A DNA stretch of 4,630 nt from a virus (IMGVR_UViG_2663763286_000024), one strand, 5' to 3'. Shown: positions 1 through 4,630, counted from the first letter of the stretch. Notes: generated by a model from the sequence alone, not told the origin. Program-made: numbers and translations.

Positions 1-2
1 TA

Positions 3-119
3 ACGTGGGTGGACTGGTATAACAATCGACGATTGCTGGAAAGGCTGGGCCATATTCCTCCGGCAGAAGCAGAAAAAGCTTATTATGCTTCCATCGGAAA
101 TAATGATCTGGCAGCCTGA
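3..119 (+). CDS. IS3-family transposase OrfB, C-terminal fragment (5' end outside window)
   Basis: Frame 3 is open from the window edge to TGA at 117-119 and translates TWVDWYNNRRLLERLGHIPPAEAEKAYYASIGNNDLAA. The YNxxR...LG..P.E pattern is typical of IS3-family OrfB C-termini. The other two frames have stops within 25 nt. Confidence 0.75.
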   Translation, partial: TWVDWYNNRRLLERLGHIPPAEAEKAYYASIGNNDLAA

Positions 120-136
120 GTTCACAGATAAAATAC

Positions 137-161
137 TCTCCAGGAAACCCGGGGCGGTTCA
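137..161 (+). repeat. Right terminal inverted repeat (IRR) of IS copy 1
   Basis: Reverse complement of 137-161 is TGAACCGCCCCGGGTTTCCTGGAGA, against TGAACCGCCCCGGAAATCCTGGAGA at 4250-4274. Confidence 0.7.
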
Positions 162-238
162 CCCGGCAATTTCTGCAATCTGCGAAGCTGGCGATCGGTC
201 AGACTTAAATGCCTGACAACTTCAGTCTGCGTAGCCAC
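162..238 (-). pseudogene. Probable 5' stub of terminase small-subunit (Nu1/NohD-like) gene, truncated by the IS insertion at 161/162
   Basis: On the minus strand a GTG at 238-236 is preceded by GAGGTGAGGA (Shine-Dalgarno-like) and an in-frame stop one codon upstream. The frame then stays open for 25 codons (VATQTEVVRHLSLTDRQLRRLQKLP) to the IS junction. The start lies about 195 bp from the cosN end, matching lambda geometry where Nu1 starts about 190 bp from the left cohesive end. Sequence similarity to Nu1 was not verified. Confidence 0.25.
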
Positions 239-285
239 TCCTCACCTCGCAAAAACTCTCACCTCACAATTAGCACAAAACCGAT

Positions 286-384
286 CATGTCCGGTTTATA
301 TGTCCATTTTTTGCGCATGTCCGGTTCACGGAAAGCCCGTTCTTATATTTTTCATGTAGTTAACTTGCAGAGAAACCGGACATG
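286..384. repeat. cosB-like terminase-binding repeats: three copies of CATGTCCGGTT (two direct at 286-296 and 316-326, one inverted at 374-384)
   Basis: Exact 11-mer present three times. Positions relative to cosN (about 49-59, 107-117 and 137-147 nt) and orientation (nearest copy inverted relative to the other two) mirror the lambda R3/R2/R1 arrangement. The AT-rich spacer 327-373 lies where lambda has the IHF site I1. Confidence 0.6.
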
Positions 385-470
385 GTTCCCGGAAAATTTT
401 CATAAATAGCGAAAACCCGCGAGGTCGCCGCCCCGTAACCTGTCGGATCGCCGGAAAGGACCCGCAAAAT
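286..470 (-). other. cos site (cosB - cosN - cosQ side) of a lambdoid phage
   Basis: Reverse complement of 422-433 is GGGCGGCGACCT, the lambda 12-nt cohesive end. The roughly 45 nt on the cosB side (377-421) and 30 nt on the other side (434-465, CGTAACCTGTCGGATCGCCGGAAAGGACCCG) match my recollection of the lambda left and right termini with few differences. Confidence 0.75.
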
Positions 471-632
471 GATAATAATTATCATCTACATGTCACAACG
501 TGCATCTACGCCATCAAACCACGTCAAATAATTAATTATGACGCAGGTATCGTATTAATTGATCTGCATCAACTTAACGTAAAAACAACTTCAGACAATA
601 CAAATCAGCGACACTGAATACGGGGCAACCTC

Positions 633-827
633 ATGTCAACGAAGAACAGAACCCGCAGAACAACAACCCGCAACATCCGCTTTCCTAACCAAATGATTGA
701 ACAAATTAACATCGCTCTTGATCAAAAAGGGTCCGGAAATTTCTCAGCCTGGGTCATTGAAGCCTGCCGTCGGAGGCTAACGTCAGAAAAGAGAGCATAT
801 ACATCAATTAAAAGTGATGAAGAATGA
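633..827 (+). CDS. ylcI: Small basic ribbon-helix-helix-like DNA-binding protein (YlcI/DUF3950-like), 64 aa
   Basis: ATG at 633 with GGGG 7 nt upstream, 64 codons to TGA. Arg/Thr-rich N-terminus, then a predicted beta-strand (IRFP), helix (NQMIEQINIALDQ), G-x-S/N turn (KGSGN) and helix (FSAWVIEACRRRL), as in Arc/MetJ/CopG proteins. Size and position next to cos match the DLP12 ylcI locus as I recall it; the symbol is tentative. Confidence 0.6.
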   Translation: MSTKNRTRRTTTRNIRFPNQMIEQINIALDQKGSGNFSAWVIEACRRRLTSEKRAYTSIKSDEE

Positions 828-991
828 ACATCCCGCGTTCTTCCCTCCGAACAGGACGATATTGTAAATTCACTTAATTACGAGGGCATTGCAGTAATTG
901 AGTTGCAGTTTTACCACTTTCCTGACAGTGACAGACTGCGTGTTGGCTCTGTCACAGGTTAAGTAGTTTGAATGATTAGCAGTTATGGTGA

Positions 992-1198
992 TCAGTCAAC
1001 CACCAGGGAATAATCCTTCATATTATTATCGTGCTTCACCAACGCTGCCTCAATTGCCCTGAATGCTTCCAGAGACACCTTATGTTCTATACATGCAATT
1101 ACAACATCAGGGTAACTCATAGAAATGGTGCTATTAAGCATATTTTTTACACGAATCAGATCCACGGAGGGATCATCAGCAGATTGTTCTTTATTCAT
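992..1198 (-). CDS. ybcW: Small acidic hypothetical protein, 68 aa (YbcW-like lambdoid moron)
   Basis: ATG at 1198-1196 (minus) with GGAG 7 nt upstream, 68 codons. Synteny (between the cos-proximal RHH gene and the DUF1398-like gene near bor) and length match DLP12 ybcW and a lambda right-end ORF as recalled. AT-rich. Confidence 0.6.
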
Positions 1199-1246
1199 TT
1201 TGTCGCTCCATGCGCTTGCTCTTCATCTAGCGGTTAAAATATTACT

Positions 1247-1272
1247 TCAAATCTTTCTGTATGAAGATTTGA
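1247..1272. promoter_or_regulatory. Perfect 9-bp inverted repeat TCAAATCTT-N8-AAGATTTGA in the divergent intergenic region between the 68-aa and 136-aa genes
   Basis: Seen directly: 1247-1255 and 1264-1272 are exact reverse complements. Located 49 bp upstream of the minus-strand start at 1198. Candidate operator or 5' leader hairpin. Confidence 0.3.
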
Positions 1273-1483
1273 GCACGTTGGCCTTACATACATCTGTCGG
1301 TTGTATTTCCCTCCAGAATGCCAGCAGGACCGCACTTTGTTACGCAACCAATACTATTAATTGAAAACATTCCTAATATTTGACATAAATCATCAACAAA
1401 ACACAAAGAGGTCAGACCAGATTGAAACGATAAAAACGATAATGCAAACTACGCGCCCTCGTATCACATGGAAGGTTTTACCA

Positions 1484-1894
1484 ATGGCTCAGGTTGCCAT
1501 TTTTAAAGAAATATTCGATCAAGTGCGAAAAGATTTAAACTGTGAATTGTTTTATTCTGAACTAAAACGTCACAATGTCTCACATTATATTTACTATCTA
1601 GCCACAGATAATATTCACATTGTGTTAGAAAACGATAACACTGTGTTAATAAAAGGACTTAAAAAGGTTGTAAATGTTAAATTCTCAAGAAATACGCATC
1701 TTATAGAAACGTCCTATGATAGGTTGAAATCAAGAGAAATCACATTTCAGCAATACAGGGAAAATCTTGCTAAAGCAGGAGTTTTCCGATGGGTTACAAA
1801 TATCCACGAACATAAAAGATATTACTATGCCTTTGATAATTCATTACTATTTACTGAGAGCATTCAGAACACTACACAAATCTTTCCACGCTAA
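1484..1894 (+). CDS. ybcV: Hypothetical protein, DUF1398/YbcV-like lambdoid moron (136 aa from the ATG at 1484; the frame is open from 1361)
   Basis: The frame is open 1361..1894. The ATG at 1484 has a strong Shine-Dalgarno (GGAAGG at 1470-1475, 8-nt spacer) and gives 136 aa, matching the recalled length of E. coli YbcV. Alternative starts are TTG 1361 (177 aa) and ATG 1442 (150 aa, no SD). Strongly AT-rich compared with the neighbouring lysis genes. Confidence 0.7.
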
Positions 1895-2185
1895 ATCATA
1901 ACGTCCGGTTTCTTCCGTGTCAGCACCGGGGCGTTGGCATAATGCAATACGTGTACGCGCTAAACCCTGTGTGCATCGTTATTAATTATTCCCGGACACT
2001 CCCGCAGAGGAGTTTCCCTGTCAGGGCTGCGGACATAGTTAATCCGGGAATACAGTGACGATCCTTCGCATCTGACATACATTAATAAATATTAACAATA
2101 TGAGATTTCAACTCATTGTTTAGGGTTTGTTTAATTTTCTACACATACGATTCTGCGAACTTTAAAAAGCATCGGGAATAACACC

Positions 2186-2479
2186 ATGAAAAAAATGCTA
2201 CTCGCTACTGCGCTGGCCCTGCTTATTACAGGATGTGCCCAACAGACGTTTACTGTTCAAAACAAACCGGCAGCAGTAACACCAAAGGAAACCATCACCC
2301 ACCATTTCTTCGTCTCTGGAATTGGGCAGAAGAAAACTGTCGATGCAGCCAAAATTTGTGGCGGCGCAGAAAATGTTGTTAAAACAGAAACCCAGCAAAC
2401 ATTCGTAAATGGATTGCTCGGTTTTATTACTTTAGGCATTTATACTCCGCTGGAAGCGCGTGTGTATTGCTCACAATAA
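2186..2479 (+). CDS. bor: Bor outer-membrane lipoprotein (lambda Bor / Iss family, serum-resistance associated), 97 aa
   Basis: Translation MKKMLLATALALLITGCAQQTFTVQNKPAAV... matches lambda Bor as I recall it. Signal peptide with lipobox LITGC. Opposite strand to the lysis cassette and immediately downstream of Rz, as in lambda. Confidence 0.93.
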   Translation: MKKMLLATALALLITGCAQQTFTVQNKPAAVTPKETITHHFFVSGIGQKKTVDAAKICGGAENVVKTETQQTFVNGLLGFITLGIYTPLEARVYCSQ

Positions 2480-2486
2480 TTGCATG

Positions 2487-2510
2487 AGTTGCCCATCGAT
2501 ATGGGCAACT
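2487..2510. terminator. Hairpin (10-bp stem AGTTGCCCAT / ATGGGCAACT, 4-nt loop) between convergent bor and Rz; possible bidirectional terminator
   Basis: Perfect inverted repeat at 2487-2496 and 2501-2510, 8 nt after the bor stop and immediately after the Rz stop. There is no clear U-tract on either side, so the terminator call is weak. Confidence 0.35.
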
Positions 2511-2972
2511 CTATCTGCACTGCTCATTAATATACTTCTGGGTTCCTTCCAGTTGTTTTTGCATAGTGATCAGCCTCTCTCTGAGGGTGAAATAATCCCG
2601 TTCAGCGGTGTCTGCCAGTCGGGGGGAGGCTGCATTATCCACGCCGGAGGCGGTGGTGGCTTCACGCACTGACTGACAGACTGCTTTGATGTGCAACCGA
2701 CGACGACCAGCGGCAACATCATCACGCAGAGCATCATTTTCAGCTTTAGCATCAGCTAACTCCTTCGTGTATTTTGCATCGAGCGCAGCAACATCACGCT
2801 GACGCATCTGCATGTCAGTAATTGCCGCGTTCGCCAGCTTCAGTTCTCTGGCATTTTTGTCGCGCTGGGCCTTGTAGGTAATGGCGTTATCACGGTAATG
2901 ATTAACAGCCCAAGACAGGCAGACGATGATGCAAATAACCAGAGCGGAGATAATCGCGGTTACTCTGCTCAT
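2511..2972 (-). CDS. Rz: Rz spanin, inner-membrane subunit (i-spanin), 153 aa
   Basis: Translation [55 protein letters not shown]... matches lambda Rz as recalled. Start overlaps the R stop (ATGA). Confidence 0.93.
2570..2752 (-). CDS. Rz1: Rz1 spanin, outer-membrane lipoprotein subunit (o-spanin), 60 aa, embedded in Rz in the +1 frame
   Basis: Translation [60 protein letters not shown] has a lipobox (VVGC) and a proline-rich segment, and matches lambda Rz1 as recalled. Confidence 0.88.
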
Positions 2973-3445
2973 ACCTCAATCTCTCTGACCGTTCCGCCAG
3001 CTTCTTTGAATTTTGCAATCAGGCTGTCAGCCTTATGCTCGAACTGACCATAACCAGCGCCCGGCAGTGAAGCCCAGATATTGCTGCAACGGTCAATTGC
3101 CTGACGAATATCACCGCGATCAATCATCGGTAAAGCGCCACGTTCTTTAATCTGCTGCAATGCCACTGCGTCCTGGCTTTTGGGGGAGAAGTCTTTCAGG
3201 CCAAGCTGCTTACGGTAAGCATCCCACCAGCGTGAAAGAAGCTGATAACGTCCGGCTGCTGTTGATTTGAGTTTGGGGTTTAGCGTGACAAGTTTGCGAG
3301 GGTGATCGGAGTAATCAGTAAATAGCTCTCCGCCTACAATGACGTCATAACCATGATTTCTGGTTTTCTGCCGTCCGTTATCCGTTCCTTCTGACCATGC
3401 CACCATATCGAGGAAAGCTTTACGCTGAGGATTAAGATTTTGCAT
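2969..3445 (-). CDS. R: Endolysin R (lambda-type lytic transglycosylase), 158 aa
   Basis: Translation ...[46 protein letters not shown]... matches lambda R as recalled, including the catalytic-Glu region WSEGT. Only the first 7 residues differ (MQNLNPQ here, MVEINNQ in lambda as recalled). Start lies inside the 3' end of the holin gene. Confidence 0.93.
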
Positions 3446-3749
3446 TTTTCACCCCTGTCAGTCGTTCCCAGAAGTATGTCAGTGCAACCGAACCCATCGC
3501 ACCACTAATCCCCGCTGTCGCGAGAATCATGTAAATACTGAATCCACTTTCGATACTGATCAGGCCACCAATAACACCGGTGAATCCCGACACCACTATC
3601 TGAGCCAAAGCATTTATCCAGCTCCACGTTGCTTTACTCTGCTTCACATCTATCAGGTAGCGGACCAGACCGCCCCAACCTGCGATGATCAGCAAAACGA
3701 GCCAGAACGCTCCGGCAAGGCTCTCTTTTTCGTGCATATGAATAGCCAA
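3432..3749 (-). CDS. Holin, class I topology (three predicted TMDs), about 101-105 aa; not lambda S by sequence
   Basis: Sits in the S position directly upstream of and overlapping R. Three hydrophobic segments (LAGAFWLVLLIIAGWGGLV, WINALAQIVVSGFTGVIGGLI, FSIYMILATAGISGAMGSVAL) and a short charged C-terminal tail. The ORF-track start at 3749 is a TTG; the first ATG is at 3737 (codon 5). Sequence is unlike lambda S (MKMPEKHDLLAAILAAKEQG...). Confidence 0.8.
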   Translation of the reverse strand: MAIHMHEKESLAGAFWLVLLIIAGWGGLVRYLIDVKQSKATWSWINALAQIVVSGFTGVIGGLISIESGFSIYMILATAGISGAMGSVALTYFWERLTGVKNAKS

Positions 3750-3854
3750 TGTTTCGCCGCCGACAAAAGGCCGGGACGTTAAATGTCAGAAATCAGGCTC
3801 ACGGGGTAATTTAACGACAAAGCACGGAGTTGATGCTCCCCGCAAGCCTGGAAT

Positions 3855-3877
3855 AAAAAAGCCAGCATGTAGCTGGC
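3855..3877 (-). terminator. Rho-independent terminator on the minus strand (tR'-like), upstream of the holin gene
   Basis: Minus strand reads GCCAGC-TACAT-GCTGGC followed by TTTTTTATT (stem 3877-3872 and 3866-3861, U-tract 3860-3855). Lies about 105 nt upstream of the holin start, analogous to lambda tR' at the end of the 6S leader. Confidence 0.5.
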
Positions 3878-3953
3878 AACAGAGGGTTAAGCAATATCAA
3901 CTCAACAGCTGAAGACACCCTGGCTGGGGTACGTTGGAAGGATACTCACCGCC

Positions 3954-3989
3954 CAGAAACAGAAAAGCCCAAGGCTTTAAACCTCGGGC
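3954..3989 (-). terminator. Second hairpin plus U-rich tract on the minus strand (8-bp stem with one G-U, 7-nt loop)
   Basis: Minus strand reads GCCCGAGG-TTTAAAG-CCTTGGGC followed by TTTTCTGTTTCTG. Lies between the candidate late promoter and the tR'-like terminator. Confidence 0.35.
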
Positions 3990-4046
3990 TTGAATTTGGA
4001 TTACGGCCAGTGCGTACAACATTGGCAAAATATCAGATTTACATAA

Positions 4047-4075
4047 AATATATGATTTTTAATCCAGTTTTGCAA
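4047..4075 (-). promoter_or_regulatory. Candidate sigma70 late promoter (pR'-like): TTGCAA - 17 bp - TATATT on the minus strand
   Basis: -35 at 4075-4070 and -10 at 4052-4047 on the minus strand, with a predicted start near 4040, about 185 nt upstream of the terminator U-tract at 3855 (lambda 6S RNA is about 194 nt). A weaker alternative is TTGCCA (4028-4023) - 17 bp - CGTAAT (4005-4000). Motif inspection only. Confidence 0.3.
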
Positions 4076-4249
4076 TATCTTGCTGTGAAAATGTGGTCTT
4101 TTGTTTTGAACGTGTTTTCGTTAAAAGCAATAAAGCTTGGCTATCAAGCTGTAGAAAAATGTGCTTCATTGCAACCCAGCGTTCAGTAAATGTCTCAGAC
4201 CAGTTTTTTGATGTCACTCCCACCAGTGATGCCAACTCCTGGTATTCAT
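4059..4249 (-). pseudogene. 3' fragment of an ORF truncated by IS copy 2; positionally where the late antiterminator Q gene would be
   Basis: The minus-strand frame is open from the IS junction (4249) for 62 codons (EYQELASLVGVTSKNWSETFTERWVAMKHIFLQLDSQALLLLTKTRSKQKTTFSQQDIAKLD) to TAA at 4061-4059. It has no start codon, because its 5' part would lie beyond the IS. It does not resemble lambda Q as I recall it, so identity is unverified. Confidence 0.3.
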
Positions 4250-4274
4250 TGAACCGCCCCGGAAATCCTGGAGA
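4250..4274 (+). repeat. Left terminal inverted repeat (IRL) of IS copy 2
   Basis: TGAACCGCCCCGGAAATCCTGGAGA; 22 of 25 positions match the reverse complement of 137-161; TG...CA termini typical of the IS3 family. Confidence 0.7.
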
Positions 4275-4303
4275 CTAAACTCCCTGAGAAAGAGGTAAAC
4301 AGG

Positions 4304-4630
4304 ATGACTAAAAATACACGTTTTTCCCCCGAGGTCCGTCAACGGGCAGTTCGTATGGTTCTGGAAAGTCAGGGCGAATATGACTCACAATGGGCGGCAA
4401 TTTGTTCCATTGCCCCAAAGATTGGCTGTACACCAGAGACTCTGCGTGTGTGGGTTCGTCAGCATGAGCGGGATACCGGGAGTGGTGATGGTGGACTCAC
4501 CACCGCTGAACGTCAGCGTCTGAAAGAGCTGGAACGTGAAAATCGTGAACTGCGCCGCAGTAACGATATCCTTCGCCAGGCTTCCGCTTATTTTGCGAAG
4601 GCGGAGTTCGACCGCCTCTGGAAAAAATGA
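4304..4630 (+). CDS. IS3-family transposase OrfA (HTH DNA-binding and leucine-zipper protein), 108 aa
   Basis: ATG at 4304 with AGAGG about 9 nt upstream. N-terminal helix-turn-helix region and C-terminal heptad-like [25 protein letters not shown]. Ends with TGA at the window edge, directly after an A6 run (4622-4627) that would be the IS3-type -1 frameshift site into OrfB. Confidence 0.88.

Follow-up and report, generated by a model that had tools for sequence, protein, structure and literature searches.

Does a stretch of viral DNA that begins in one insertion sequence (IS) and ends in another hold a single prophage segment bracketed by two copies of the same element, and were those copies responsible for its decay? 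The stretch analysed, here called the window, is the 4,630 nt of virus IMGVR_UViG_2663763286_000024 and runs opposite to the usual phage map, with a lambdoid block of 4088 bp (162-4249) lying between the two IS ends. The original prediction, made from the sequence alone, read the block as one prophage segment bracketed by directly oriented IS629-like copies, which had either crippled the prophage by inserting or had excised or rearranged the block. It is likely that the window is a non-functional remnant of the late region of a lambda-like prophage, flanked by the ends of two IS copies in direct orientation. The right-hand IS would be the one seen in the closest relative, followed by the loss of AGGTC, the left-hand IS would interrupt codon 25 of the terminase small subunit gene (terS) or mark a deletion up to it, and two prophage modules would have been joined by a crossover. 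The loci of relatives are referred to by L numbers.

The two IS fragments are of one type. Both match the two ends of single 1310-bp copies, therefore they represent one element of about 1.3 kb, and both lie on the + strand. Window 1-161 is 100% and window 4250-4630 is 99.7% identical to five full copies (L006-L010; GCA_047262325.1; 9947-11256), and both fragments are 100% identical to the copy in L024 (GCA_025988085.1, a 5.0-Mb contig), the closest relative. Window 1-161 is also 100% identical to the right end of a full 1310-bp copy in strain OkiPb01713 (L003). The left terminus reads TGAACCGCCCC..., starting TGAACC, and the right ...GGGGCGGTTCA, finishing GGTTCA; these are terminal imperfect inverted repeats of the 5'-TG...CA-3' form, and the inverted arms at 121-161 and 4250-4290 are 41 nt long and 76% complementary. 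Terminal repeats from different IS types, the finding that the original prediction had itself named as telling against it, are ruled out by the mapping of both fragments to single 1310-bp copies (L006-L010, L024). Its claim of one IS type in direct orientation is therefore upheld, and every position that it had assigned holds.

An IS is usually regarded as an isoform of a named element when nucleotide identity is at least 95%. Compared with the IS1203 annotated in an O157 strain, window 1-161 is 96.9% and window 4250-4630 is 95.8% identical, and the full L006 copy is 95.5% identical to the O157 IS1203 annotated by PGAP (59 differences in 1310). On nucleotide identity, the element is classed as an IS629/IS1203-type isoform, though a borderline and divergent one. 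The left fragment carries the C-terminal codons of orfB from nt 3 (3-119, with TGA at 117-119) and the right fragment carries orfA, which matches Pfam HTH_Tnp_1 and whose identical protein is indexed in 4379 blocks of a public collection. The rve domain and the -1 frameshift can be read only in full copies elsewhere, and, judged from full copies annotated by PGAP, the IS3-family frameshift pseudoknot would begin approximately 46 nt before the window end. With 161 and 381 nt of the element inside the window and its interior (nt 382-1149) outside, each fragment presumably belongs to a whole IS copy. Separately, the L024 copy (410-1718) is 1309 nt long, one base under the 1310-nt reference, and a frameshift may result.

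Read on the minus strand, the block has the order Q' - pR'/terminators - holin - endolysin - Rz/Rz1 - bor - ybcV - ybcW - ylcI - cosN - cosB - terS' (Table 1), matching the lambdoid late-region order of Q, late promoter and terminator, holin, endolysin, Rz/Rz1, morons, cos, and terS. The predicted contents of cos, morons (ylcI, ybcW, ybcV, and bor), and lysis cassette are confirmed by Pfam, by alignment to lambda, and by the annotation of relatives. A functional phage would have intact Q and terminase genes; here, Q keeps 62 out of 229 codons and terS 25 out of about 165. Nothing in the window acts as a system, and the IS copies only inactivate genes and supply direct repeats of 1.3 kb.

At the right junction, the interrupted open reading frame (ORF) is Q, as had been suggested. 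Alignment to intact relatives shows that the whole gene would span 4059-4748 (690 nt, 229 codons) and that the IS cuts inside codon 167; the full-length Q of relatives matches Pfam Phage_antiter_Q (E 1e-94; PF06323 type). Look-ups with the orfA, Rz, and holin proteins match thousands of blocks and yielded L024 and L008. L024 aligns to window 389-4630 in a single piece, with two mismatches and one 5-nt gap. There are no mismatches across 566-4249, IS nt 1-381 are identical too, and at IS base 69 the window agrees with L024, whereas the other five compared copies (L001, L003, L006, L023, and L025) differ. In L024, the whole IS lies in Q' in the same orientation as in the window and is flanked by a 3-bp GTC duplication, indicating a plain insertion. 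The sequence of L024 is GGTATTCATAGGTC, IS (1309 nt), GTCTTACGCC, the downstream flank also being given as GTCTTACG, and that of the window is GGTATTCAT followed by the IS. When window 4249/4250 is compared with L024 1718-1723, 5 bp (AGGTC) are absent from the window exactly at the left end of the IS; between otherwise identical sequences, this is compatible with a small deletion beside the IS. Most economically, the window and L024 have one insertion in common: the right-hand IS most likely entered a Q pseudogene that was already truncated, and the window lineage would then have lost AGGTC beside the left IS end. Because L024 carries the IS at almost the same site, the right junction is supported by an independent assembly as real biology. 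On the question of insertion or rearrangement, insertion is thus favoured at the right end by the GTC duplication of L024, apart from the 5 bp that are absent from the window.

The state of the relatives bears on whether these insertions did any damage. In both L024 and L002 (strain 2013C-4974), the annotation shows a Q without its N-terminal part, a truncated terL, and the loss of most structural genes; the remnant lies beside icd, and the early region between Q' and traR/xis/int has been deleted. Q is already N-terminally truncated in these two, therefore the IS hit a pseudogene. The suggestion that the insertions crippled the prophage is not borne out, its nearest relatives being remnants already. 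Likewise, the killing of an active phage by the IS copies was considered and ruled out, since relatives without the IS are also remnants.

At the left junction, the start codon of terS is the GTG at 238 (minus strand), and the gene is cut at 162, after 25 codons and 2 nt. What is left is 100% identical to the start of a gene annotated as 'terminase small subunit' in L004 (5582-6079), and this alignment and the translation agree with the predicted cut after codon 25; the full-length relative matches Pfam Phage_Nu1 over residues 49-150 only. The left junction has no match among 5,426 complete E. coli genomes. It is proposed that the left-hand IS interrupts codon 25 of a terS from a different lambdoid module, or may have deleted up to it. 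Other strains carry IS copies in or near this gene. IS629-type elements interrupt this terS type at positions other than that of the window. They are plain insertions in O121 strain WL1277 (L025), with a TGG duplication, and in SW070919, with a TAG duplication. In O111:H8 strain 8E, the IS separates terS' from nleG, there is no duplication, and the copy is associated with a rearrangement. In O157, at Z1814, an IS1203 copy with a GGG duplication adjoins a related cos-region fragment and an ISEc8 copy, and in OkiPb01713 the IS lies just past the 3' end of terS, in the same orientation and without a duplication.

IS-mediated deletion or recombination at one or both junctions, such that the DNA beyond the IS does not continue the cut gene, is to be weighed against simple insertion, and we consider it a realistic possibility, at somewhat less than an even chance. 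The L003 copy provides one possible route, as its last 161 nt equal window 1-161 and deletion of L003 5063-5614 (552 bp) recreates the left junction exactly; against this, the L003 IS differs from the right-hand fragment of the window at 6 out of 381 positions, so there is no close link of lineage. Duplications of 3-4 bp flank 15 of the 22 full IS copies examined, including L024 (GTC), and the seven without them are compatible with deletion, yet plain insertions with duplications in the same terS type in two relatives (L025, L028) favour simple insertion. In O157, prophages or prophage-like elements hold 62% of IS629 copies, and matching duplications of 3-4 bp flank only 21 out of 47 (PMC3271280). 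If the right-hand IS is the same event as in L024, the loss of 5 bp beside it would itself be a small deletion adjacent to an IS. The reciprocal junctions that simple insertions are expected to leave (the IS right end with the rest of Q, and the rest of terS with the IS left end) have no contiguous match in the complete E. coli genomes, although this shows only that the events are strain-specific. As a side observation, L025 (1-3062) of WL1277 also has a terL'-terS'' fragment between two IS629-type copies in direct orientation; the inner copy is the terS insertion with the TGG duplication, and the second truncates terL.

Between the junctions, the block is not one prophage segment as had been predicted, with 162-388 and 725-4249 coming from different lambdoid modules. 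Window 160-724, which covers the terS start, cosB, cosN, and the start of ylcI, is 100% identical to L004, the cif/nleH prophage of strain 2014C-3011 (B-type). To the A-type remnants there are no mismatches over 566-4004 (L002) and 566-4249 (L024). Differences from the window occur at 533 and 565 in the A-type and at 725-755 in the B-type, therefore the switch lies within 566-724, 159 bp that are identical in both. Window 389-4249 is contiguous in more than 300 complete E. coli genomes, with no IS inside it among the matches listed, and these loci have the lambda-type Nu1/nohD on the left (L001, L002). In contrast, 162-1000 is contiguous in none of the complete E. coli genomes, the best match reaching window 844. 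It is proposed that the terS module was joined to the rest by a crossover inside the 159-bp stretch common to both parental prophage types.

The A/B join has two possible origins: two resident prophages recombined in this lineage, or the assembly joined them wrongly. In the second case, the genome would contain an A-type remnant whose Q' carries an IS and, separately, a B-type effector prophage whose terS carries one; a short-read assembler would have connected them through 566-724, and the IS ends would not bracket one 4.1-kb block. The 100% match to L004 gives way to a 100% match to L024 exactly within the stretch that the two types have in common, both types are present at separate loci in relatives such as 2014C-3011, 162-1000 is not contiguous in any complete genome, and the window, being missing from the complete-genome collection, may derive from a draft assembly. 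However, lambdoid prophages commonly undergo homologous recombination at such stretches, with the same sequence as the outcome, other genomes break elsewhere in the region (the matches to window 844), so natural mosaics do arise here, and assemblers usually break contigs at such repeats instead of misjoining them. A mis-join is therefore considered unlikely. In these strains, it was also observed that the A-type and B-type prophages are approximately 1.15 Mb apart and in opposite orientation in 2014C-3011 and approximately 155 kb apart and in the same orientation in 2013C-4974 (NZ_CP027591.1, NZ_CP027587.1), a contrast that suggests a large rearrangement of the chromosome between strains that are otherwise nearly identical.

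Three points weigh against the interpretation of the window as a crossed-over remnant whose right-hand IS is shared with L024. Firstly, a second IS that inserted independently, 5 bp away and in the same orientation, could account equally well for the 5 bp by which the window and L024 differ. Secondly, the A/B join is without a counterpart in the complete genomes and could be an assembly error. Thirdly, the outer flanks beyond both IS copies lie outside the window, in which the copies are represented by 161 and 381 nt, so what is beyond each IS can only be deduced. The flanks would distinguish the alternatives. If the right-hand IS is followed by GTCTTACGCCCTGCC, then it is the same event as in L024 with a 5-bp loss, and if it is followed by (T)CATAGGTCTTACG, it is an independent insertion with its own CAT duplication. 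Similarly, a left-hand IS preceded by ...GATATCGGGGCACCC (terS from codon 26, with a CCC duplication) would indicate simple insertion in terS, and DNA of tail-fibre or effector type before it, as in L003 or L026, would indicate deletion or rearrangement.

The module boundary coincides with the cos region. The right end of lambda (position 48502) aligns to window 434, and the cohesive end GGGCGGCGACCT is therefore placed at 422-433 on the reverse strand, from the alignment and the sequence. Homology to lambda and to DLP12-type prophages ends at 388/389, between cosN and cosB; this border is a classical module boundary that keeps cosB with the matching terminase small subunit. To its left are three exact copies of CATGTCCGGTT, two direct and one inverted (286-296 and 316-326 on the + strand, 374-384 on the - strand), compared with 0.10 expected by chance, and none of 200 shuffles reaches three. 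By their position and by likeness to lambda cosB, these copies are putative terminase-binding R sites.

Given two direct copies of one IS flanking a block that holds a moron of known phenotype, the block and its two IS could be imagined as a composite transposon or excisable unit moving bor, cos, and the lysis genes. Such a unit would be expected at more than one locus or replicon, and this was not found. Like the left junction, the right junction has no contiguous match in the complete E. coli genomes, the exact patterns of both junctions are in neither the GTDB species representatives nor the JGI metagenomes, exact-protein look-ups with five junction-spanning or junction-adjacent ORFs returned no record, and a search of 72,556 plasmids matched lambda-like replicons and IS sequences alone, without any bracketed unit. 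The searches thus give no indication of composite-transposon movement, and in L024 the right-hand IS has its own duplication, so it inserted alone. The IS-bracketed bor-lysis-Q' block of L008 is analogous, yet its junctions differ and so do its IS variants (95% and 100%). Movement as a composite unit is accordingly very unlikely. The broader proposal is extremely improbable, namely that the IS-flanked block is an excisable or transposable unit with a working cos site, bor, and a lysis cassette, and that a helper lambdoid phage of matching terminase specificity could mobilise it or its chromosomal neighbourhood, the 5-bp loss and the inter-prophage join being footprints of ongoing IS-driven remodelling. 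Direct repeats of 1.3 kb can in principle delete the DNA between them by homologous recombination, and recombination on these IS copies could delete this block; the two reciprocal joints sought above would also mark the looped-out deletion product.

Two further observations arose from these searches. L008 (4697-11256 of GCA_047262325.1) is a DLP12-like remnant, bor-Rz-endolysin-holin-porin (nmpC)-Q', between two direct IS629-type copies that are 95% and 100% identical to the reference copy, neither having a target-site duplication; as a similar but unrelated remnant, it shows that the IS-bracketed outcome recurs. In PLSDB, NZ_CP145514.1 (3561 bp), NZ_CP092122.1 (3585 bp), and NZ_CP068597.1, NZ_CP104294.1, and NZ_CP082339.1 (approximately 48.5 kb) are 97.5% identical to window 448-3428. 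These 'plasmids' of approximately 48.5 or 3.6 kb were deposited for Paenibacillus, Stenotrophomonas, Salmonella, Klebsiella, and E. coli, and are presumably lambda control DNA carried into assemblies instead of real plasmids.

The remaining features of the block are those of a lambdoid late region (Table 1). Several genomes carry an identical Rz protein in their lambda-type late regions, and the endolysin DNA is 97.5% identical to lambda R up to window 3428, where the homology to lambda ends. A consensus scan predicts a pR'-like promoter at 4075-4047 and terminator-like hairpins at 3991-3965 and 3877-3861; the late control function is suggested by their position. The window has no match in an Rfam scan at the gathering threshold.

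Table 1. Features of the 4,630-nt window, with their positions, strands, and the evidence for each
Feature	Position	Strand	Evidence or content
IS 3' end (nt 1150-1310), IS629/IS1203-type, IS3 family	1-161	+	orfB C-terminus and right inverted repeat
terS', first 25 codons and 2 nt, GTG start at 238	162-238	-	Identity to L004; translation
cosB-like region of this terS type	239-388		Three copies of CATGTCCGGTT
cosN cohesive end GGGCGGCGACCT	422-433	-	Lambda alignment and sequence reading
Switch interval, identical in both parental prophage types	566-724		Mismatch map against L002, L004, and L024
ylcI (YlcI/YnfO family, DUF3950)	633-827	+	Identical gene annotated in L001/L002; Pfam PF13132, E 5e-20
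ybcW, small protein of unknown function	992-1198	-	Annotation of near-identical L001/L002; no Pfam match
ybcV (DUF1398)	1484-1894	+	L001/L002 annotation; Pfam PF07166, E 2e-46
bor, serum-resistance lipoprotein (moron)	2186-2479	+	Pfam Lambda_Bor, E 1e-30; annotation of relatives
Rz spanin	2511-2972	-	Pfam Phage_lysis, E 3e-54
Rz1, embedded within Rz in another frame	2570-2752	-	ORF list; PF06085 at the same place in relatives
Endolysin, lambda R type, 158 aa	2969-3445	-	DNA identity to lambda R; glycoside hydrolase annotation in near-identical relatives; no Pfam match
Holin, LydA-type, not lambda S	3432-3737	-	Pfam PF16083, E 8e-22
Late control region between Q and holin (predicted)	3861-4075	-	Consensus scan only
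Q', last 62 codons, stop, and 2 nt of codon 167	4059-4249	-	Alignment to Q of L001 at 7671-8360
IS 5' end (nt 1-381), second copy	4250-4630	+	Left inverted repeat 4250-4290 and orfA 4304-4630 (108 aa)

Beyond strain typing, the significance of the window is slight; lineages could be marked by its two junctions and by the 5 bp in which it differs from L024. The classical boundary between cosN and the cosB/terS module is exemplified by the join at 566-724. That join is also a warning that short identical stretches can lead draft assemblies to link prophages.

Each part of the window can be compared with a known system. IS629-type elements are known to accumulate in the lambdoid prophages of E. 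coli strains that produce Shiga toxin (STEC), to inactivate them, and to delete parts of them. The elements described here share with IS629/IS1203 of STEC lambdoid prophages TG...CA termini, imperfect inverted repeats of approximately 40 nt, orfA (HTH_Tnp_1), and a location in prophages, for which a preference is known (PMC3271280); full copies elsewhere are 1310 bp long, read orfB (rve) through a programmed frameshift, and make duplications of 3-4 bp. The elements of the window differ in their insertion points, terS codon 25 and Q codon 167, which are not found in complete E. coli genomes. The right arm of lambda (R, Rz/Rz1, bor, two right-end ORFs, and cos) is the counterpart of most of the block, window 389-3428 matching lambda 45510-48502, read on the reverse strand, at 97.5% identity; judging by the alignment at cos, the likeness would also cover roughly the first 45 nt of lambda, and the cohesive end is identical. 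However, the LydA-type holin, the PF06323-type Q, and the terS/cosB module are not those of lambda. Closest is the icd-adjacent remnant, with 99.9% identity to L002 and 99.95% to L024 (two mismatches) over 389-4249. Here the differences are that the left side of cosN is occupied in L002 and L024 by a lambda-type Nu1 (nohD) and cosB, and in the window by the other terS type, that the L024 junction is 5 bp longer, and that L002 is without the IS. The cif/nleH prophage of L004 differs in that its terS is whole and has no adjoining IS629-type element, and that ylcI is followed on the right by perC and a different lysis cassette. The window is a strain-specific instance of the known genome decay in Shiga-toxin-type E. 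coli, and not a new system.

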